Shown here in pieces: positions 18,177 through 25,759 of a DNA stretch of 64,000 bases (positions are counted from its first letter, which is position 1; each line of letters opens with the position of its first letter). A program made the translations under genes and the position numbers. The stretch comes from Escherichia phage p000y, in sequence record MK047718.1; one strand, written 5' to 3'. Under the pieces are notes generated by a model. The model worked only from the letters and a program-made list of their open reading frames with translations, was not told the origin of the DNA and made no database searches.

Positions 18177-18488
18177 ATGGTTTATGTATATGCAATAGTT
18201 TATCGAGATATGGAAGGATTTACTGTCCCGGTTCCACTTGATGAGCATCGTCCTGCAGTATTTTTTAGAAAGGATATTGCAGATAAAGTTTTCGATACTT
18301 TGAAAACACAGTATAAAACAGATTTAAAAATGGGAGTTCTAAGAATGGTCGAAACTCCGCGTAAGTTTTGGTTTAATAAGCTTGAAATGAAACACGTTAA
18401 ACTAGATGCGGAGACGCAAAGATTGTATCAACGAATTCTGGACACAGGCCGTATTGTTAGTATTCCAATTGCAGGGACTTTACGATGA
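18177..18488 (+). CDS. Hypothetical protein (103 aa), dda.1 position
   Basis: Tightly packed upstream of dda; ATGA overlap at its 3' end. Confidence 0.5.
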   Translation: MVYVYAIVYRDMEGFTVPVPLDEHRPAVFFRKDIADKVFDTLKTQYKTDLKMGVLRMVETPRKFWFNKLEMKHVKLDAETQRLYQRILDTGRIVSIPIAGTLR

Positions 18489-19798
18489 CATTTGATGATT
18501 TGACTGAAGGTCAGAAAAACGCCTTCAACGTTGTTATGAACGCTATTAAAGAAAAGAAACATCACGTAACTATTAATGGGCCCGCTGGTACAGGTAAAAC
18601 AACCCTTACTAGATTCATCGTTGAAGCTCTTATTTCTGCCGGAGAATCAGGTATTATTTTAGCAGCCCCTACACATGCTGCTAAAAAGGTTCTAAGCAAA
18701 CTTGCTGGTCAAGAAGCATCGACTATTCATAGCATTCTTAAAATCAACCCAACTACATACGAAGAAAACGTATTGTTTGAACAGAAAAAGGTTCCCGACT
18801 TAGCCTTGTGTCGTGTACTGTTATTTGATGAAGCGTCAATGTGCGACCGTTCTCTGTTTAAAATAATGTTAGCTAGTATCCCTAAATGGTGTACAGTAAT
18901 TGGAATCGGCGACCGATGCCAGATTCGTCCGGTAGACCCAGGCGAATCAACTGCGTATCTAAGTCCTTTCTTCACTCACAAAGACTTCGTGCAATGCAAC
19001 CTTACAGAAGTTAAACGTAGCAATGCACCAATTATTGATGTTGCGACTGATATTCGTAATGGCAAATGGATTTACGATAAAGTAGTTGATGGACACGGTG
19101 TTCATGGATATACAGACCTTAAATCCTATATGATGAACTATTTTAACGTCGTTAAAACTCCTGAAGACCTTTTCGAAAATCGAATGATGGCATTCACAAA
19201 TAAGTCGGTGGACAAGTTGAATTCAATTATTCGCCGAAAACTTCTTGAAACAGAAAAACCGTTTATTAAAGACGAAGTCATTGTTCTACAAGAGCCATTT
19301 ACTAAGACATATAAACTAGATGGCAAAAATATGACCGAAATGCTTTTCAATAACGGGCAATTCGTTCGTATTCGAGATGCTGTAGAAACGTCTACATTCG
19401 TTAAAGCACGTGGTGTTTCAGGCGAATATATGATACGATACTGGAATCTTACAGTAGAAACATATGGGGATGATGAAGAATACATCCGCGAAGATATAAA
19501 GGTTATTTCTTCTGAAGAAGAGCTTTATAAATTCAATTTGTTTTTGGCTAAGACCGCAGAAACATACAAATTCTGGAATAAAGGCGGTAAAGCTCCATGG
19601 AGCGAATTCTGGGATGCTAAACGTATGTTCACTAAGGTGAAGGCACTACCAGTATCAACCTTCCATAAGGCCCAGGGCATGTCCGTCAATACAGCCTTTG
19701 TTTATACTCCGTGTATCCATTACGCTGATTCAGAATTAGCTAAACAGTTATTGTATGTCGGCACAACTCGTGGTCGTTTTGACGTCCATTTTATTTGA
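18485..19798 (+). CDS. dda: Dda DNA helicase (SF1)
   Basis: 437 aa; Walker A GPAGTGKTT, DEASM motif; length and position match T4 Dda. Confidence 0.9.
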   Translation: MTFDDLTEGQKNAFNVVMNAIKEKKHHVTINGPAGTGKTTLTRFIVEALISAGESGIILAAPTHAAKKVLSKLAGQEASTIHSILKINPTTYEENVLFEQKKVPDLALCRVLLFDEASMCDRSLFKIMLASIPKWCTVIGIGDRCQIRPVDPGESTAYLSPFFTHKDFVQCNLTEVKRSNAPIIDVATDIRNGKWIYDKVVDGHGVHGYTDLKSYMMNYFNVVKTPEDLFENRMMAFTNKSVDKLNSIIRRKLLETEKPFIKDEVIVLQEPFTKTYKLDGKNMTEMLFNNGQFVRIRDAVETSTFVKARGVSGEYMIRYWNLTVETYGDDEEYIREDIKVISSEEELYKFNLFLAKTAETYKFWNKGGKAPWSEFWDAKRMFTKVKALPVSTFHKAQGMSVNTAFVYTPCIHYADSELAKQLLYVGTTRGRFDVHFI

Positions 19799-19807
19799 GA
19801 GAAAATT

Positions 19808-20485
19808 ATGAGCACTGATGTTATTATAGATTTTGAAACATTCGGCAATACATCAAAAGCGGCTGTTATTGACCTTGCGGTTATTGCATATAATTCCGAC
19901 CCTGAAGTTGTTGAATCATTTGAAGAACTTGTTCAACGAGGTAAGCGAATTAAATTTAATTTAGCTTCTCAGAAAGGGAAGCGAGTTTTCGCTAAATCCA
20001 CTATGAAATGGTGGAAAGAACAATCAGCAGAAGCACGTAAAAACCTGGCTCCGTCTGAAGACGATGTCACTACGCTTGAAGGTATTAAAATCTTTTTAGA
20101 TTATTGTCGAGCTAATAAAGTTGACCAATGGAAATCACAGATGTGGTGCCGTGGTATGAGCTTTGACTTCCCGATCTTGGTCGATTTGATTCGTGATCTC
20201 TATCGTGATGAAGGTGTTCTTGAACCAGATATTGATACTGATAAATTAGAACCTGTTAAATTCTGGGCTCAACGTGATATTCGTACGGCAATCGAAGCTT
20301 ACTCGTTGACACGAGGATTAAGTATGTGTCCATTACCGATGGGTACGCTAAAAGGATTCGTTGCCCATGATAGTATTCACGATTGTGCTAAAGATATTTT
20401 GATGTTAAAATATGCTCAGCGTTATGCGCTTGGCCTTGAAGATGTCCCTGAGAATCCTGACCCGTTAAGTGTAAAACAGCGATAA
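19808..20485 (+). CDS. dexA: DexA exonuclease A (DnaQ-like 3'-5' exonuclease)
   Basis: 225 aa; N-terminal IIDFETFG exonuclease motif; follows dda as in T4. Confidence 0.8.
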   Translation: MSTDVIIDFETFGNTSKAAVIDLAVIAYNSDPEVVESFEELVQRGKRIKFNLASQKGKRVFAKSTMKWWKEQSAEARKNLAPSEDDVTTLEGIKIFLDYCRANKVDQWKSQMWCRGMSFDFPILVDLIRDLYRDEGVLEPDIDTDKLEPVKFWAQRDIRTAIEAYSLTRGLSMCPLPMGTLKGFVAHDSIHDCAKDILMLKYAQRYALGLEDVPENPDPLSVKQR

Positions 20486-20490
20486 AACCA

Positions 20491-20520
20491 GTTTACAACC
20501 AAGGATGGTTGGAGTATAAT
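20491..20520 (+). promoter_or_regulatory. T4-type early promoter with spacer hairpin AACCA-AGGA-TGGTT
   Basis: GTTTAC, 18-nt spacer, TATAAT. Confidence 0.55.
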
Positions 20521-20550
20521 CTTTCTATCTTAACCAAACAGGAAAACATT

Positions 20551-21045
20551 ATGAATATCAATACCACGGCTACTTACATCCTGAAAGATGAAAAACAAAT
20601 CAACTGGTACGGTGCTTCAGTGCGAGCTTATGAAAAGTTTTGTGAAATTTTAGGTGCCACTCAAGGTAATAGTTTCACTATTGTTAACTTCATCAAACAA
20701 GTTGAAGGCCCTTGGTTATTCTTAGAAATTAAAAATTCATATGGTATAATTTCTACTACCGCCCTTCCAAGCACCGACTTTGAACTGTTGATTGAAGAAG
20801 TAGAACCCGTTAAAGATATCTGTATTGATATGGATATCGCTTGTATGTACGGTACTCTGATTAAGCCTATTGAGCCTACTGATTTGTTGTGTAAATATGT
20901 TTCAATTCGACGCCCATTCGCTGGTCCAGTAAATGGATGGGTAACTGACCAATGGATTGAAGACGGTGTTGAACTTCTGAACGTTGTTCATGCAGGTGAT
21001 TTTAGTGTAGTTCCACGTAGTGCTGTGGTTAATATCCTTAATTAA
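20551..21045 (+). CDS. Hypothetical protein, paralog family member 1 (about 164 aa)
   Basis: ATG 20551 after an early promoter and RBS; shares the C-terminal motif DQWIEDGVELLNVVHAGDFSVVP with the next two ORFs. Confidence 0.5.
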   Translation: MNINTTATYILKDEKQINWYGASVRAYEKFCEILGATQGNSFTIVNFIKQVEGPWLFLEIKNSYGIISTTALPSTDFELLIEEVEPVKDICIDMDIACMYGTLIKPIEPTDLLCKYVSIRRPFAGPVNGWVTDQWIEDGVELLNVVHAGDFSVVPRSAVVNILN

Positions 21046-21107
21046 TGTTGTACATCCAAGGACGGATGGAGTATAATGAATTCAACTTAAACAAAGAGAG
21101 AGAAATT

Positions 21108-21563
21108 ATGATTACTATTGGTGAAATTAAGCGTGTATCGTCTGCATCTCGTTCTAAAGCTGCAGGTCGTCTAGTTGAAGTGGTAGGACTTCGTACTAAT
21201 GGTACTGGTCGTGTTAAAGAAGTTAAAGTTCGAATCATTCCTAGTTCTGGAAAAACTGAAACTCAGTACGCTTACGTAAGTCCTAAATTCTTGGAAACTC
21301 ATGTGAGCGCTCATTTTGCTTCTACTGAACCTAATGTACAGTTCAAATGGGCCTTGTGTAAAGGTGTTGAATTCCAGACTGATAAAGAATTTGACTTCAT
21401 CGATGAATACGGTTATCCAAGCAAAACTGATACTATGTGTGGCTTCATTAGTGACCAATGGGTTGAAGATGGTGAAAAGTTATACAATATCGTATTCTTA
21501 GGTGACTTCCGAGTTGTTAAAGAATCTGAAATCACTCGCTATGTGTCTCCTCGTAAAGCTTAA
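21108..21563 (+). CDS. Hypothetical protein, paralog family member 2 (about 151 aa)
   Basis: ATG 21108 after AGAGAGAGAA RBS; VSSASRSKAAGRLVEV and DQWVEDGEKLYNIVFLGDF shared with neighbours. Confidence 0.5.
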   Translation: MITIGEIKRVSSASRSKAAGRLVEVVGLRTNGTGRVKEVKVRIIPSSGKTETQYAYVSPKFLETHVSAHFASTEPNVQFKWALCKGVEFQTDKEFDFIDEYGYPSKTDTMCGFISDQWVEDGEKLYNIVFLGDFRVVKESEITRYVSPRKA

Positions 21564-21572
21564 GGAATTATT

Positions 21573-21992
21573 ATGAATATTGTAAATCTCTCTACAGGTG
21601 ATTACGTATATGTATCTGTTGCTTCTCGCTCTAAAGTTGCCGGGAAGTTGGTTGAAGTTCTTTCTGTGAGTGATCCGGTTTTTGGTCGTAACCAAGTTAA
21701 AGTTCGTGATGCTAATGGTAATATTGGCTACATCTCAAGCCAGTTCATTGAGCCAGAAGAACGTGCGTTCAAATGGAAACTGTGCAGGTCAGTTTTAGTT
21801 GTAAAAGACCATGAATTTACTATTGCTGCCGCAACTGATGGGTCTCCATGGACAACGAATCAAGTCGCTGGTTTTATTTCAGACCAATGGGTTGAAGATG
21901 GTGTTAAGCTTTATAACATCGTTTTCGCCGGACAGTTCATGGTAGTTCCTGAATTCCAAATCAAAGGATATAGCCAAGCATCTTTTGCATAA
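21573..21992 (+). CDS. Hypothetical protein, paralog family member 3 (139 aa)
   Basis: VSVASRSKVAGKLVEV and DQWVEDGVKLYNIVFAGQF shared with the two upstream ORFs. Confidence 0.5.
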   Translation: MNIVNLSTGDYVYVSVASRSKVAGKLVEVLSVSDPVFGRNQVKVRDANGNIGYISSQFIEPEERAFKWKLCRSVLVVKDHEFTIAAATDGSPWTTNQVAGFISDQWVEDGVKLYNIVFAGQFMVVPEFQIKGYSQASFA

Positions 21993-22051
21993 AGTTGTTT
22001 ACTTCTCCTCCGGTTTTGATATTATAACCATATCAACCAGAGGAGAATAAT

Positions 22052-22576
22052 ATGTTAGTTTACCGCGTAGAACGTAGTTTTTGTACTCAACGTGAATCAT
22101 TACCAGGAATTGCTATCGAAGACGGTAAAGCCGTCAGAATTTGGGAAACCTCTTGGAATAAAGAACCTCGCTCGCCATACGGTTGGTCGGGCACCGACAA
22201 CTCTGAAGAAACATGGGAGTTCCTTGATAAGCATGGAATACTCTCAGGTAACTTCTACCATCACGGCGACAACTATAATGTCCCTAATCGTCCTACAGTA
22301 AATGAAGACAAACTCCTTGAACAAAATATCTTAAGATACCATAGAATTGAGTACACATTTGAATTGAGTGAAGATTGGGCTCAAGGGTTCTATTTTGGAT
22401 TTGAAAGCGTTGACGCGGTTTATGCATGGTTTGATGACCAGGTGGATGTTGAACTCTTGAAAGCTAAAGGATACTACATCGCGGTCTATGAAGCACCTGA
22501 TTTCATCCTCGGAAGTTGTCAATTAATGTTCAGACGTTCATTGGCAGAACAAGTTGATTTTATTTTGCTAAAATGA
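22052..22576 (+). CDS. Hypothetical protein (174 aa)
   Basis: Early promoter plus AGAGGAGAA RBS upstream. Confidence 0.5.
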   Translation: MLVYRVERSFCTQRESLPGIAIEDGKAVRIWETSWNKEPRSPYGWSGTDNSEETWEFLDKHGILSGNFYHHGDNYNVPNRPTVNEDKLLEQNILRYHRIEYTFELSEDWAQGFYFGFESVDAVYAWFDDQVDVELLKAKGYYIAVYEAPDFILGSCQLMFRRSLAEQVDFILLK

Positions 22577-22605
22577 TGTACAACAACTATGGTTTATGAT
22601 ACTAT
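22577..22605 (+). promoter_or_regulatory. T4-type early promoter
   Basis: TGTACA, 17-nt spacer, TACTAT; conserved downstream ...TATAGACCTATCAA motif. Confidence 0.45.
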
Positions 22606-22633
22606 AGACCTATCAAATCAAGAGGAGAATATT

Positions 22634-22861
22634 ATGAAATGTCAAATCATTAAAAACGTAACTACTGATTCAAACATCGATGAGTTTGAAGATGTTCTGT
22701 TTAATCCTGATTTAGTTGTTGTACAGAAAAACTGGACCGGATTTTTATGCTACACCGAAGTGGTTTACGTTTACGAAAAACTCGGCGATGAAATGCCTAT
22801 CTATGGTATCTTCCGTGAAATCACTGAAAACGGTACAACTTATTGGAAGGAAACTTACTAA
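22634..22861 (+). CDS. Hypothetical protein (75 aa)
   Basis: ATG 22634 after AGAGGAGAA RBS; the track N-terminal extension overlaps the promoter. Confidence 0.45.
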
Positions 22862-23271
22862 TGGCTAATAAATTCCGCGTTAACTCATGGTACCAATTTA
22901 AAGATAAACGTGCCCAAGAAGAGTTTATTAAGGACCACACCGATAATGGTATTTATGCACGACGTCTTGGCATGGAACCATTTAAAGTATTAGATGTTGA
23001 CCATCTTGGTCGTCCTACTAAAATTGTGACATCTACTGGCATGGTTGGATACGCGACAGGTGGTGATATCCTTGATGAAAACTTTATCTGGCTCTCCACG
23101 AATGAAGCAGAGTTTTTTGATGAAGTGGGAAATCCGTATCAAGCGTCCGAAGAGCAAGATTCTGGTGAACTTGACGAATTGTCTGAATTTCCGGTGATGA
23201 CAATTACTATCGAAAATAACGACCAGGCATGGTCTTTGTATCAAATGTTGAAAGCACATTTTAAGGAATAA
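22861..23271 (+). CDS. Hypothetical acidic protein (136 aa)
   Basis: TAATG overlap at 22861; track start 22843 is a TTG. Confidence 0.45.
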
Positions 23272-23273
23272 TA

Positions 23274-23453
23274 ATGCCGTTATACGACTATAAATGCCAA
23301 TCTGAAGATTGCGGACATGAATATGAAAAAATTAAAAGGATTTCTGAACGAGAAAACGATGTTTGCCCTGAATGTCATCGTCTGTCTACTCGTCGGGTTT
23401 CTGCTCCTAAACATGTGAACGGTGGTTTTTACGACTTACTTAAGAAGGGTTAA
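23274..23453 (+). CDS. Zinc-ribbon protein (FmdB-like CxxC...CxxC, about 59 aa); below the ORF-track size cutoff
   Basis: Translation MPLYDYKCQSEDCGHEYEKIKRISERENDVCPECHRL...; coordinates are approximate to within 1-2 nt. Confidence 0.45.
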   Translation: MPLYDYKCQSEDCGHEYEKIKRISERENDVCPECHRLSTRRVSAPKHVNGGFYDLLKKG

Positions 23454-23455
23454 TT

Positions 23456-23878
23456 ATGGCTTTTAAAGGTTTTGAAGTTGGTAAGAAATATCGTATTATC
23501 AAAGGACAGGAAGATAATTTCTTGAGAATTCTTAATACGACTGGTAAACGTCTTAACACTACTCTGCATACAGTTTTATTATCAAGAGATTTTATTGTAG
23601 AAGAGATGATTGGTTATGGTGTTTCAATGATTGCCGCTGAAACCGATGGACCTGGACGTACAATCATTAGTATGCAAGGTGATATTCTGATTTATGGTGC
23701 AGAATTTAAATTCTTTGAAGAAGTTCCGGAACAAGATACAGCTGTCGATTTCAAAAAAGGCTCTATAGAATTTGTTGATGGTTCGGTGATCGTATCAGGC
23801 GATGTGGTCATTACAGTTAAAAGTGAACAAGGGCGTTTGGCTGCAATTGATGCACTTCAGAAAATTAAATTTAAATAA
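23456..23878 (+). CDS. Hypothetical protein (140 aa)
   Basis: ORF followed by a GGGCTTCGGCCC-TTTTT terminator. Confidence 0.5.
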   Translation: MAFKGFEVGKKYRIIKGQEDNFLRILNTTGKRLNTTLHTVLLSRDFIVEEMIGYGVSMIAAETDGPGRTIISMQGDILIYGAEFKFFEEVPEQDTAVDFKKGSIEFVDGSVIVSGDVVITVKSEQGRLAAIDALQKIKFK

Positions 23879-23895
23879 GGGCTTCGGCCCTTTTT
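23879..23895 (+). terminator. Intrinsic terminator upstream of the gene 39 middle promoter
   Basis: GGGC-TTCG-GCCC followed by T5. Confidence 0.65.
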
Positions 23896-23919
23896 GCTTT
23901 AGATTTCGGATGATAGAAT
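23893..23919 (+). promoter_or_regulatory. Candidate MotA-dependent middle promoter upstream of gene 39
   Basis: MotA box ttTGCTTtA followed by TAGAAT at the expected -10 distance. Confidence 0.4.
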
Positions 23920-23941
23920 ACCTTCATAACGAGGAGACAAC

Positions 23942-25759
23942 ATGATTAAAAATGAAATTAAGGTATTGTCAGATGTAGAACATATTAAGAAACGTAGTGG
24001 TATGTATATTGGTTCTTCTGCTAAAGAAGCACATGAGCGTTTTTTGTTTGGTAAATATCAACAAGTTGAATATGTTCCAGGTCTGGTTAAATTAATCGAT
24101 GAGATTATTGACAACTCGGTTGATGAAGCTATTCGTACATCATTTAAGTTTGCAAATAAAATTGATGTGCAAATTAAAAATAATCAAGTTTCGGTGGAAG
24201 ATAACGGACGTGGTATTCCTCAAGGTTTAGTTACCGACCAAACAGGTGAACAAATTCCTGGTCCTGTAGCAGCCTGGACTATTCCAAAGGCCGGTGGTAA
24301 CTTTGGTGATGACTCTGAACGCAAGACTGGTGGTATGAACGGCGTCGGGAGTAGTTTAACTAATATCTTCTCTACGTTGTTTACAGGCATCACGTCAGAT
24401 GGCGAAAATGAAATCACTGTTAACTGTTCAAACGGAATGGAAAACAAATCATGGTCTTCTAAGAAATCTAAAGGTAAAGGCACTAAAGTAATCTTCACTC
24501 CTGATTTCTCTTCATTTGAAGAGCATAATTTATCTCAAATTTATTTAGATATTACTTTAGACAGACTTCAAACATTGGCAGTCGTTTATCCTGATATCAA
24601 GTTCACATTTAATGGTAAAAAGGTTGATGGTAATTTTAAACGATTTGCTAAACAATTTGGTGAAGATAACATCATTCAAGAAAATGATAAAGTCTCTATA
24701 GCATTCACAACATCACCAGATGGCTTCCGTCATTTAACTTATGTGAATAACATCCATACTAAAAATGGTGGTCATCATGTTGAATGTGTAATGGATGATA
24801 TCTGCGAACATCTTTTGCCTGGTATTAAAAAGAAATATAAGGGTATTGAAGTCACTAAAGCTCGTGTTAAAGAATGCCTCACAATGTTGATGTTTATTAG
24901 AGACATGAGCAATATGCGTTTTGATTCTCAGACTAAAGAACGTTTAACGTCAACGTATGGTGATATTCGTAATCATATCCAATTAGATGCTAAGAAAATT
25001 GCTCAGGCACTTCTTAAAAACGAAGCCTTGATTATGCCTATTGTTGAAGCAGCATTAGCTCGTAAATTGGCGGCAGAAAAGGCTGCAGAAACTAAAGCAG
25101 CTAAAAAGGCAACTAAAGCTAAGGTTCATAAGCATATTAAAGCTAACCAATGTGGTAAAGACGCAGATACGACATTGTTCTTAACAGAAGGTGATTCTGC
25201 AATTGGTTATCTCATTGATGTTCGTGACCGTGAACTACACGGCGGATTCCCATTACGTGGTAAGGTGATGAATAGCTGGGGTATGTCATATGCGGATATG
25301 ATGAAGAACAAAGAGCTCTTTGATATCTGTGCTATCACAGGTCTTATTCTTGGTGAAAAGGCCGAGAATACGAACTATCGTAATATTGCAATTATGACTG
25401 ACGCAGATCACGACGGTCTTGGAAGTATCTATCCGGCTTTGCTTGCTTTCTTTAGTAATTGGCCTGAATTGTTTGAACAAGGACGTATTCGCTTTGTTAA
25501 AACACCTGTAATTATTGCACAAATTGGCAAAACTCAAAAATGGTTTTATACTGTAGCTGAGTATGAAGAAGTTAAAGATACACTGCCTAAGCATAGTATT
25601 CGATACATCAAGGGATTAGGCTCCCTTGAAAAGTCAGAGTATCGTGAAATGATTCAGAACCCTGTGTACGACGTAGTTAAACTTCCTGAAAATTGGAAAG
25701 AACTCTTTGAAATGTTGATGGGTGATGATTCAGAACTTCGTAAAGAATGGATGTCCTAA
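23942..25759 (+). CDS. 39: DNA topoisomerase II large subunit (GyrB-like), continuous 39/60 fusion
   Basis: 605 aa; GHKL ATPase motifs (IDEIIDNSVDEA, GGMNGVGSS), TOPRIM (LTEGDSA) and the C-terminal part corresponding to T4 gp60 in one uninterrupted frame. Confidence 0.9.
   Translation: MIKNEIKVLSDVEHIKKRSGMYIGSSAKEAHERFLFGKYQQVEYVPGLVKLIDEIIDNSVDEAIRTSFKFANKIDVQIKNNQVSVEDNGRGIPQGLVTDQTGEQIPGPVAAWTIPKAGGNFGDDSERKTGGMNGVGSSLTNIFSTLFTGITSDGENEITVNCSNGMENKSWSSKKSKGKGTKVIFTPDFSSFEEHNLSQIYLDITLDRLQTLAVVYPDIKFTFNGKKVDGNFKRFAKQFGEDNIIQENDKVSIAFTTSPDGFRHLTYVNNIHTKNGGHHVECVMDDICEHLLPGIKKKYKGIEVTKARVKECLTMLMFIRDMSNMRFDSQTKERLTSTYGDIRNHIQLDAKKIAQALLKNEALIMPIVEAALARKLAAEKAAETKAAKKATKAKVHKHIKANQCGKDADTTLFLTEGDSAIGYLIDVRDRELHGGFPLRGKVMNSWGMSYADMMKNKELFDICAITGLILGEKAENTNYRNIAIMTDADHDGLGSIYPALLAFFSNWPELFEQGRIRFVKTPVIIAQIGKTQKWFYTVAEYEEVKDTLPKHSIRYIKGLGSLEKSEYREMIQNPVYDVVKLPENWKELFEMLMGDDSELRKEWMS

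Follow-up and report, generated by a model that had tools for sequence, protein, structure and literature searches.

A putative motB.1-motB-motB' cassette with a common C-terminal domain in Escherichia phage p000y

Three tandem genes of Escherichia phage p000y (here A, B and C) are, by sequence comparison, the motB.1, motB and second motB copy already described for RB69-like T4-type phages, and probably encode small host-takeover proteins, putatively early, with one C-terminal domain in common. The reading developed here, to which we give a probability of roughly 0.75, is that they form a Mosigvirus early cassette, motB.1-motB-motB', of two-domain proteins that would function as described for T4 MotB. 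The arrangement is known from RB69 and T4, and nothing is added here to the published picture of it; the value of the trio is as an example of the MotB/MotB.1 family that is correctly placed and delimited. The analysis covered one stretch of 64,000 nucleotides from sequence record MK047718.1, referred to below as the window.

Gene identity and genomic setting

The window is Mosigvirus (RB69-like), and the three ORFs were confirmed in it on the plus strand. The features discussed below are:

20492-20520, plus strand: promoter-like site TTTACA-17-TATAAT before A (11 of 12 sigma-70 consensus positions)
20551-21045, plus strand: gene A, motB.1 ortholog, 164 aa (phrog_2333, PF17613, alignment to T4 MotB.1)
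20551-20799, plus strand: predicted A N-terminal domain, residues 1-83, strands and one helix (AF2)
20824-20871, plus strand: A linker motif IDMDIACMYGTLIKPI, in a segment predicted to be disordered (AF2 pLDDT, motif comparison)
20875-21042, plus strand: predicted A C-terminal domain, residues 109-164, MotB.1 subtype of the MotB-type domain (hhalign, AF2)
21049-21077, plus strand: promoter-like site TGTACA-17-TATAAT before B (10 of 12 sigma-70 consensus positions)
21108-21563, plus strand: gene B, motB ortholog, 151 aa (PF17613, phrog_1671, alignment to RB69 and T4 MotB)
21573-21992, plus strand: gene C, second motB paralog, 139 aa (PF17613, phrog_1671, identity to B)
22003-22047, plus strand: stem-loop bounding the cassette on its 3' side (folding energy)

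Pfam family PF17613 (motB) is matched by all three proteins above its curated cut-off of 25 bits: by B over residues 1-146 (E 1.8e-38, 132.4 bits), by C in two stretches (E 1.2e-22, 80.9 bits), and by A with 35.2 bits confined to residues 84-159. B and C fall into the MotB-like phrog_1671 (E 7.3e-65 and 7.6e-50, respectively), and A matches phrog_2333 over its full length, residues 1-164 (E 6.6e-82). In T4 the alignment partners are MotB.1 for A (43% identity) and MotB for B and C (48% and 44%); among other phages, A is 97% identical to Escherichia phage SF gp181 and 70% to RB68 motB.1, and B is 96% identical to RB69 MotB. Searches with the trio proteins found no match in NCBIfam and, by sequence, no solved structures.

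The gene order dda-dexA-[A-B-C]-motB.2-cef-goF-39.2-x-39 is common to the window, RB69 and other Mosigviruses, and two motB genes plus a motB.1 with a common C-terminal domain have been recorded for RB69 (Patterson-West et al., 2021; PMC7827196, section 3.2). A preliminary description of this DNA had noticed tandem paralogs in the variable interval between dexA and gene 39 and proposed a role in host interaction, but did not recognise the named motB/motB.1 family. The placement agrees with ORF positions and synteny, and the proposed role with the nature of T4 MotB, a toxic, abundant early DNA-binding protein (PMC6070864, PMC7827196).

Several GenBank records start B at 21045, giving a protein of 172 aa. 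The start at 21108 is the better choice, since the strong sigma-70-like promoter at 21049-21077 falls inside the 172-aa extension.

Shared and unshared domains

The C-terminal blocks are DQWIEDGVELLNVVHAGDFSVV in A, DQWVEDGEKLYNIVFLGDFRVV in B and DQWVEDGVKLYNIVFAGQFMVV in C, the last with GQF in place of GDF. The preliminary description proposed pairwise and profile alignment of these blocks, and both gave significant similarity: BLASTP E-values are 1e-30 for B-C (43% identity, full length), 3e-11 for A-C and 3e-10 for A-B, and profile-profile comparison of MotB with MotB.1 (hhalign) pairs residues 112-163 of A with residues 82-146 of B (probability 98.5%, E 1.8e-15, 52 columns). The N-terminal motif SRSK(A/V)AG(R/K)LVEV, also ascribed to all three, belongs to B and C; A has no SRSK anywhere, and its N-terminal domain has no sequence relation to those of B and C. 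The picture of three paralogs with common blocks at both ends therefore holds for B and C, and A belongs to the MotB family through its C-terminal domain only.

Each protein is predicted to fold into two small beta-barrels with a flexible linker between them. In B and C, the KOW-like N-terminal domain with its SRSKAAGxLVEV and VKVR motifs is present and the C-terminal core FKW...DQWVEDGxKLYNxVF is complete; A has the MotB.1 subtype of this core. The AF2 model of B (mean pLDDT 83.7) has an N-terminal domain at residues 1-62, a disordered segment at 66-75 and a C-terminal domain at 78-146 with pLDDT above 90. In the model of A, the N-terminal domain (block-mean pLDDT 80-87) has predicted strands at 8-11, 42-49, 55-61, 67-73 and 80-83 and a helix at 26-37; an LSm-like fold of the MotB.1/GoF/Frd.2 family, a bent beta-sheet of five strands, has been described for the N-terminal domain of T4 MotB.1 (PMC12152347), and that of A is probably the same domain. 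Residues 86-106 have pLDDT below 50. The C-terminal domain (block-mean pLDDT 85-90) has strands at 116-119, 127-137, 140-147 and 150-155, a short helical turn, and a strand at 159-161.

The MotB-type C-terminal domain is joined to at least four N-terminal architectures, and that of A is 74-88% identical to C-terminal domains carrying quite different N-terminal parts. The linker motif of A, D(M/T)D(I/V)A(S/C/H)MY.., recurs at the start of the 180- and 250-aa architectures, and distant family members carry it between their KOW-like and C-terminal domains. A search of 1.84 billion protein representatives with the C-terminal-domain profile gave only 34 matches, and the family is narrow: about 25 of the cluster representatives are genuine, and in most of these a KOW-like domain precedes the C-terminal one. 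The long matches (532-862 aa) are confined to 4-7 short, repeated segments; P0243, which was inspected, is a repeat protein built of GYATEQWV-like units and was rejected as a homolog. In a six-frame motif scan of the whole window, DQW[IV]EDG was confined to A, B and C, and a fourth short motif copy like the RB69 “29-aa peptide” was absent.

The second motB gene

Gene C appears to be an old, conserved MotB paralog with a clade of its own. It keeps all 35 of 35 invariant MotB columns; copies at 80% identity or more are present in 207 phage records, orthologs include RB69p010 and RB51ncORF010c, and among the matches listed the ortholog is always in the second-MotB place. No homologs at 60-80% identity were found in the phage record search, and in a rough neighbour-joining tree (no bootstrap) C lies outside all canonical MotBs. 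This clade, the identity gap and the outside branching rule out a recent tandem duplication of B and C. C differs from B in being near-neutral (pI 5.8, net charge -1). It begins after a gap of 9 nt, and no plus-strand promoter-like site was found between the two genes, so that C is probably co-transcribed with B.

Boundaries, selection and exchange

A and B are preceded by promoter-like sequences of the early (sigma-70) type, suggesting early transcription, with starts predicted near 20527 and 21084. The site before A sits in the dexA-A intergenic region, that before B starts 4 nt past the A stop codon, and at neither is there a significant stem-loop (z -0.32 each). At the 3' edge, the segment 21985-22051, which holds the stem-loop, has a minimum free energy of -19.6 kcal/mol (z -4.55, matched by none of 200 shuffles). 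Within this stem-loop lies a further promoter-like site, TTTACT-16-TATTAT (21998-22025). The 3' arm of the stem-loop pairs with the Shine-Dalgarno sequence of the motB.2-like gene that follows (ATG 22052), and may mask it when transcripts read through.

In pairwise comparison with nine related phages, dN/dS ranges from 0.05 to 0.32 in A, from 0.06 to 0.28 in B and from 0.10 to 0.30 in C; the values are 0.02-0.04 for dda and 0-0.07 for dexA. The trio is under purifying selection, weaker than that on dda and dexA, and the term “diversifying” earlier applied to these paralogs does not fit values of 0.05-0.32.

Positions 20550-22000 are 85-99% identical in nucleotide sequence to Tequatrovirus CAM-21, versus 73-77% for dexA; identity jumps from about 75% to above 95% in the dexA-A intergenic region, and the similarity stops at the 3'-edge stem-loop. 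RB51 holds the same trio. These patterns show that the trio has been inherited and exchanged as one block between Mosigvirus and Tequatrovirus.

Interrupted motB.1 in reference genomes

The T4 reference MotB.1 has 119 aa and lacks most of the C-terminal domain. The 1-nt insertion behind this form is found only in AF158101/NC_000866 and is absent from 11 other T4 records; in T4D and T4B stocks, motB.1 is expected to read GACCAATGGATTGAAGATGG, with a 143-aa ORF. In the RB69 reference, two single-base insertions divide motB.1 into ORFs of 132 and 29 aa. Neither is present in the window or in phage mobillu, and close RB69 relatives encode an intact MotB.1; the RB69 “29-aa peptide” is the tail of a split motB.1 and not a separate short gene. 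Both reference genes are broken within the conserved C-terminal domain, and experiments based on them therefore used a truncated MotB.1; the plasmid-expressed protein of Kim et al. (2025; PMC12152347) is such a form, truncated in the C-terminal domain. Full-length motB.1 may be hard to clone, and toxicity might then account for the frameshifts in the two Sanger-era references.

Possible functions

On the reading preferred here, the MotB C-terminal domain is preceded in B and C by a KOW-like domain (SRSKAAGxLVEV...VKVR), and a C-terminal domain of the same type is preceded in A by an unrelated, LSm-like one. By extension from its T4 ortholog, B would be produced in large amounts from the first minute after infection, bind host and phage DNA tightly and with no sequence preference, and alter the seating of H-NS on DNA, with derepression of silenced genes; it would be toxic to the cell and raise burst size about two-fold. 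T4 MotB is purified together with H-NS/StpA and raises the expression of host genes that H-NS represses, and no interaction between MotB and H-NS was seen without DNA (PMC6070864, PMC7827196). MotB has also been proposed to compact the nucleoid (Son et al., 2021, as cited in PMC13096335).

How the work might be divided between domains is suggested by charge. The N-terminal domain of B is basic (net +7, pI 10.4), which fits non-specific DNA binding; C (-1) and A (-9) fit less. From net charge alone, DNA binding by B may therefore lie mainly in this KOW-like domain, and C, being near-neutral, probably binds DNA less strongly and serves a specialised or modulatory purpose. For A, deletion of T4 motB.1 gave no phenotype (Kim et al., 2025; PMC12152347), suggesting that A may contribute little in laboratory conditions.

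The C-terminal domain, with its DQWxEDGxxLxNVV motif, is the most conserved part of these proteins and is acidic (net charge -2 in A, -4 in B, -1 in C). We think it could be a common protein-interaction or assembly module, linking the KOW-like heads of B and C and the LSm-like head of A with one shared partner or with one another. Against this, the C-terminal domain of T4 MotB is slightly basic (+1), not acidic, and the dependence of the MotB/H-NS interaction on DNA lends no support to H-NS as its direct partner. In its strict form, in which the domain is an acidic SH3/Tudor-like module for homo- or hetero-oligomerisation or for one common host partner, and not a DNA-binding OB-fold, this idea is tentative and rather unlikely. 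In the published view, either the KOW or the C-terminal domain, the latter termed an OB-fold, could bind DNA (Patterson-West et al., 2021; PMC7827196).

Another possibility, also unlikely in our estimate, builds on that OB-fold: the trio would be redundant non-specific DNA binders, with the C-terminal domain itself binding DNA and the extra copies raising the dose, or broadening the conditions, of nucleoid coating. The acidity of this domain in A and B, and its charge of -1 in C, speak against this, and a pI of 4.5 and net charge of -9 for the whole of A would be unusual in a non-specific DNA binder. The predicted C-terminal domain also matches SH3-like topology more closely than OB topology: strand 4 follows strand 3 with no intervening helix, and a short helical turn separates the final two strands. 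B and C are only 43% identical to each other, yet each is 84-99% conserved within its own clade, pointing to distinct roles.

An anti-defence role, suggested in the preliminary description, or a counter-silencing one, with each member directed against a different host factor, the C-terminal domain as scaffold and the N-terminal domain giving specificity, is quite improbable, although several features would suit it: the surrounding region is variable, non-essential and rich in host-takeover genes, the same C-terminal domain is found on at least four N-terminal architectures, phage genera exchange the cassette, and H-NS, whose targets MotB derepresses, is a xenogeneic silencer. Against it, dN/dS (at most 0.32) gives no sign of positive or diversifying selection, and the proteins are not known to inhibit any defence system; neither essentiality nor reduced plating efficiency is reported for T4 motB.1 (PMC12152347), the effect of motB on burst is only two-fold (PMC6070864, PMC7827196), and MotB does not bind H-NS when DNA is absent. 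The chance that the shared blocks are fortuitous or low-complexity similarity, or that the ORFs are not genes, is negligible: both are ruled out by the pairwise (E 1e-30 to 3e-10) and profile E-values, Pfam and PHROG matches, orthologs in the hundreds, dN/dS well below 1 and confident AF2 models.

Comparison with known systems

T4 MotB has the two-domain architecture common to B and C, the invariant motifs SRSK..G..VE, VKVR, FKW and DQWxExGxKLYNxVF kept in both, and the same position between dexA and cef. It differs in its linker (B lacks about 11 residues of it, and C lacks about 23 residues), in its single copy, versus two in the window, and in its pI (9.2, versus 5.8 for C). T4 MotB.1 resembles A in its phrog_2333 membership, its slot directly upstream of motB and its N-terminal plus MotB-type C-terminal domains, but the T4-type protein has 143 aa and lacks the linker motif IDMDIACMYGTLIKPI present in the 164 aa of A. 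RB69 and RB51 have the same three genes in the same order as the window, and RB51ncORF010c is 90% identical to C; motB.2 is upstream of the trio in RB51 and CAM-21, and downstream in the window.

The proposed outcome, early relief or alteration of H-NS silencing, resembles that of T7 gp5.5 and T4 Arn, but those two proteins target H-NS itself by direct binding and MotB works by way of DNA; no relation in sequence or fold was seen between them and the trio. In some respects the trio resembles the PeSL (promoter-early stem-loop) cassettes of Arbiol et al. (2010) and Comeau et al. (2014): early-promoter regions flank it, it has been exchanged as a block between phage genera, and its 3' boundary at 22003-22047 has a promoter-like site inside a strong stem-loop (z -4.55). 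The promoters before A and B differ from these in lacking a significant stem-loop (z -0.32 each); the GGGG...CCCC stem is absent from the trio boundaries.

Implications

For the MotB/MotB.1 family, the distribution of charge and the predicted topology suggest that the two domains have separate tasks. If the C-terminal domain did prove to be a connector, which we regard as doubtful, these genes would amount to a modular phage chromatin kit that phage genera pass on as a unit, its one connector carrying either DNA-binding (KOW-like) or RNA-binding (LSm-like) heads that can be interchanged; a corollary would be that MotB.1 assays with cloned genes have so far followed the frameshifted T4 reference and not the full-length protein. 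The interrupted reference versions of motB.1, and the exchange of the motB.1-motB-motB' block between genera, could be useful to those working on MotB proteins.

Gene content and family identity

The window belongs to a T4-type phage and is oriented in the direction of early transcription; megablast places it among the Mosigviruses (RB69-like), with 96-97.6% identity across 19800-24000 to LH01, FL31, mobillu, JS09 and ATK47. The genes considered here (A, B and C, together the trio) and their surroundings are:

18485-19798, dda, 5' of the trio
19808-20485, dexA, 5' of the trio
20492-20520, promoter-like site of A (TTTACA-17-TATAAT)
20551-21045, + strand, A, motB.1 ortholog, 164 aa
21049-21077, promoter-like site of B (TGTACA-17-TATAAT)
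21108-21563, + strand, B, motB ortholog, 151 aa
21573-21992, + strand, C, second motB paralog, 139 aa
22003-22047, stem-loop 3' of C
22052-22576, motB.2-like gene, 3' of the trio
22634-22861, cef, 3' of the trio
22861-23271, goF, 3' of the trio
23274-23453, 39.2-type zinc-ribbon gene
23456-23878, goF-like paralog
from 23942, gene 39

The trio is a real, well-delimited example of an established family, in an arrangement that has already been described. All three proteins pass the 25-bit cut-off of the Pfam motB family, PF17613 (B 132, C 81 and A 35 bits, the last only over residues 84-159). B and C align to T4 MotB and fall in phrog_1671 (MotB-like); A is an ortholog of T4 MotB.1 (43% identity) and falls in phrog_2333. 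RB69 carries the same gene set: motB.1, motB (96% identical to B) and RB69p010. A published comparison divided 102 homologs between a MotB and a MotB.1 group, with a common C-terminal domain and unlike N-terminal domains (Patterson-West et al., 2021; PMC7827196, section 3.2), and recorded for RB69 a 29-aa peptide in addition to one motB.1 and two copies of motB (PMC7827196). Kim et al. [quoted passage not shown] Both goF (E 7e-39) and the gene at 23456-23878, two positions downstream (E 4e-19), match phrog_622, and the latter has in addition a weak match (E 0.0026) to the MotB.1 family, phrog_2333. The dexA-39 interval thus holds several LSm-like GoF/MotB.1 family members beyond the MotB trio.

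Shared and unshared domains

The preliminary description had the three proteins sharing both an N-terminal and a C-terminal block, a structural observation that is two-thirds right. The C-terminal block is common to all three and highly significant: BLASTP matches of A to B and to C are confined to the last 30-36 residues (E 3e-10 and 3e-11), and profile-profile comparison of MotB with MotB.1, using 24-sequence alignments of each family, aligns B 82-146 to A 112-163 over 52 columns (probability 98.5%, E 1.8e-15). Its proposed spelling with GDF does not extend to C, which has GQF. The N-terminal motif SRSK(A/V)AG(R/K)LVEV is found in B and C, which are 43% identical over their whole length (E 1e-30), but not in A, where the N-terminal domain is a different one.

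AlphaFold2 models were built from family alignments. In the model of B (mean pLDDT 83.7), a beta domain at the N-terminus (1-62) is joined by a disordered linker (66-75) to a C-terminal domain (78-146) whose pLDDT exceeds 90. In that of A (mean pLDDT 78.1), residues 1-83 form a beta-plus-helix N-terminal domain, residues 86-106 are disordered and residues 112-161 make up the C-terminal domain. B combines a strongly basic N-terminal domain (net +7, pI 10.4) with an acidic C-terminal one (-4); C as a whole is near-neutral (pI 5.8), and A is acidic along its entire length (net -9, pI 4.5).

The MotB.1-type C-terminal domain (consensus PTDLLCKxVxIRRPF..GWVTDQWIEDGVELLNVVHAGDFSVVPRSAV) is 74-88% identical among proteins of ~101, 143-145, 164-169, 180 and 250 aa whose N-terminal parts differ. 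A profile of the C-terminal domain only, searched against 1.84 billion representative proteins, gave just 34 matches at E ≤ 0.001, ~25 of them genuine, each 100-250 aa. The more distant genuine matches all combine a KOW-like N-terminal domain (for example MKIGSRVYVSILSRSKVAGE), the linker motif D(T/M)D(V/I)A(S/H)MY and the C-terminal domain. In A this motif reads IDMDIACMYGTLIKPI (residues 92-107, window 20824-20871), within the predicted disordered segment; its wider form, D(M/T)D(I/V)A(S/C/H)MY(G/L)T.(I/V)KP(L/I), is conserved in further proteins, including P0141, P0137, P0231 and P0236. It lies in the linker of A and of the distant KOW-type relatives; in the 180- and 250-aa forms it is N-terminal. 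It looks like a candidate short linear interaction motif.

Selection, age and exchange

The same description called the paralogs "diversifying", which their substitution patterns do not support. In pairwise Nei-Gojobori comparisons with nine related loci, dN/dS is 0.05-0.32 for A, 0.06-0.28 for B and 0.10-0.30 for C, compared with 0.02-0.04 for dda and 0-0.07 for dexA: purifying selection acts on the trio, somewhat less strictly than on the core genes. Of the 773 phage records with any MotB-like match, 207 contain a C-type ortholog of at least 80% identity, and nothing falls at 60-80%. Together with the position of the C clade outside all canonical coliphage MotBs in a neighbour-joining tree (a rough one, without support values), this gap indicates that the B/C duplication is old.

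The trio is also present in some Tequatroviruses, including RB51 and CAM-21. Protein identity to CAM-21 is 95% for A, 89% for B and 90% for C, and 69%, 68% and 41% for the flanking dexA, cef and motB.2. Sliding nucleotide comparison delimits a high-identity block at ~20550-22000, which ends at the promoter region 5' of A on one side and at the stem-loop 3' of C on the other; the trio is 85-99% nucleotide-identical to some Tequatroviruses, dexA is 73-77% identical, and sequence 3' of the trio is unalignable. A high-identity trio between diverged flanks indicates that the whole cassette has been exchanged between genera, which fits the general modular shuffling at early-promoter regions described for T4-type hyperplastic regions (PMC2839356). 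The promoters before A and B differ from those of promoter-early stem-loop (PeSL) cassettes in lacking the defining stem-loop. The motB.2 gene precedes the trio in RB51 and CAM-21 and follows it in the window.

Expression signals

C lies 9 nt beyond B and has no promoter of its own. Several GenBank records start B at an upstream ATG (172 aa), an extension covering 21045-21107; since the promoter-like site at 21049-21077 would then be inside the gene, the 21108 start is favoured and the 151-aa form is the likely product. The stem-loop 3' of C is strong: 21985-22051 folds at a minimum free energy of -19.6 kcal/mol (z -4.55). It encloses a further promoter-like site (TTTACT-16-TATTAT, 21998-22025), and its 3' arm base-pairs with AGAGGAGAA, the Shine-Dalgarno sequence of the motB.2-like gene (ATG 22052). 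Translation of that gene may be masked on read-through transcripts and unmasked on transcripts begun inside the loop. The GGAG of this Shine-Dalgarno is also a potential RegB site.

Interrupted motB.1 genes in reference genomes

The T4 reference (NC_000866.4 / AF158101.6; motB.1 at NC_000866.4 3792-4151, minus strand) reads GACCAATGGATTGGAAGATGG in motB.1, with an extra G (…CAATGGATTGGAAGATGG…) that truncates the protein at 119 aa (…DQWIGRWR*) within the conserved C-terminal domain, the remainder of which is intact in the next frame. The extra G is absent from eleven other T4 records and from RB55 and RB59, where motB.1 runs uninterrupted for 143 aa (e.g. KJ477684.1 390-821); in tblastn, only the two reference records required two pieces to cover the gene. 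Kim et al. (2025; PMC12152347) designed mutated motB.1 fragments on NC_000866.4 coordinates and gave the protein as 13.8 kDa, the mass of the 119-aa form, so the published MotB.1 work used a form truncated in its C-terminal domain.

In the RB69 reference (NC_004928.1 3377-3873, minus strand), two single-base insertions in the C-terminal domain, relative to window 20840-21050, divide motB.1 into a 132-aa ORF and the 29-aa ORF RB69p012; in the window and in phage mobillu the gene is one intact 164-aa ORF. The 29-aa "Category 3 peptide" (Patterson-West et al., 2021) is thus the MotB.1 tail and not a gene of its own. Both references date from the Sanger era, and in both the frameshifts fall in about 60 bp of one and the same domain, which could reflect sequencing errors or clone-library selection against a toxic insert. 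A further interruption in the MotB.1-type family occurs in the T6 record (NC_054907.1 288-827), where a 180-aa gene is split into 55- and 116-aa ORFs. The T2 record has no annotated motB.1-type gene between a dexA-sized ORF and motB, and a motif scan of the part of the record covered found no MotB.1-type C-terminal domain.

Possible functions

T4 MotB is made early and abundantly, is strongly toxic in E. coli, and increases burst size two-fold; it binds host and glucosyl-hmC DNA tightly and independently of sequence, copurifies with H-NS and StpA only when DNA is present, alters the H-NS footprint, and up-regulates 75 host genes, one third of them H-NS targets (PMC6070864, PMC7827196). According to the title of Son et al. 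(2021) and a passage in PMC13096335, later work proposes compaction and restructuring of the nucleoid by MotB. Deletion of T4 motB.1 is without phenotype, and in an RNA reporter assay the effect of plasmid-expressed MotB.1 was far below that of GoF(D25Y) (PMC12152347).

By homology, B most likely acts as T4 MotB does, and the preliminary suggestion of host-interaction factors was right in spirit. From the charge distribution we infer a division of labour between domains that exceeds the published view: the basic KOW-like N-terminal domain of B would carry DNA binding, and the common acidic C-terminal domain would be an interaction or assembly module for the three proteins. In C all of the invariant MotB residues are retained but the positive charge is gone, so that C is more likely to have a specialised or modulatory function than to be merely redundant.
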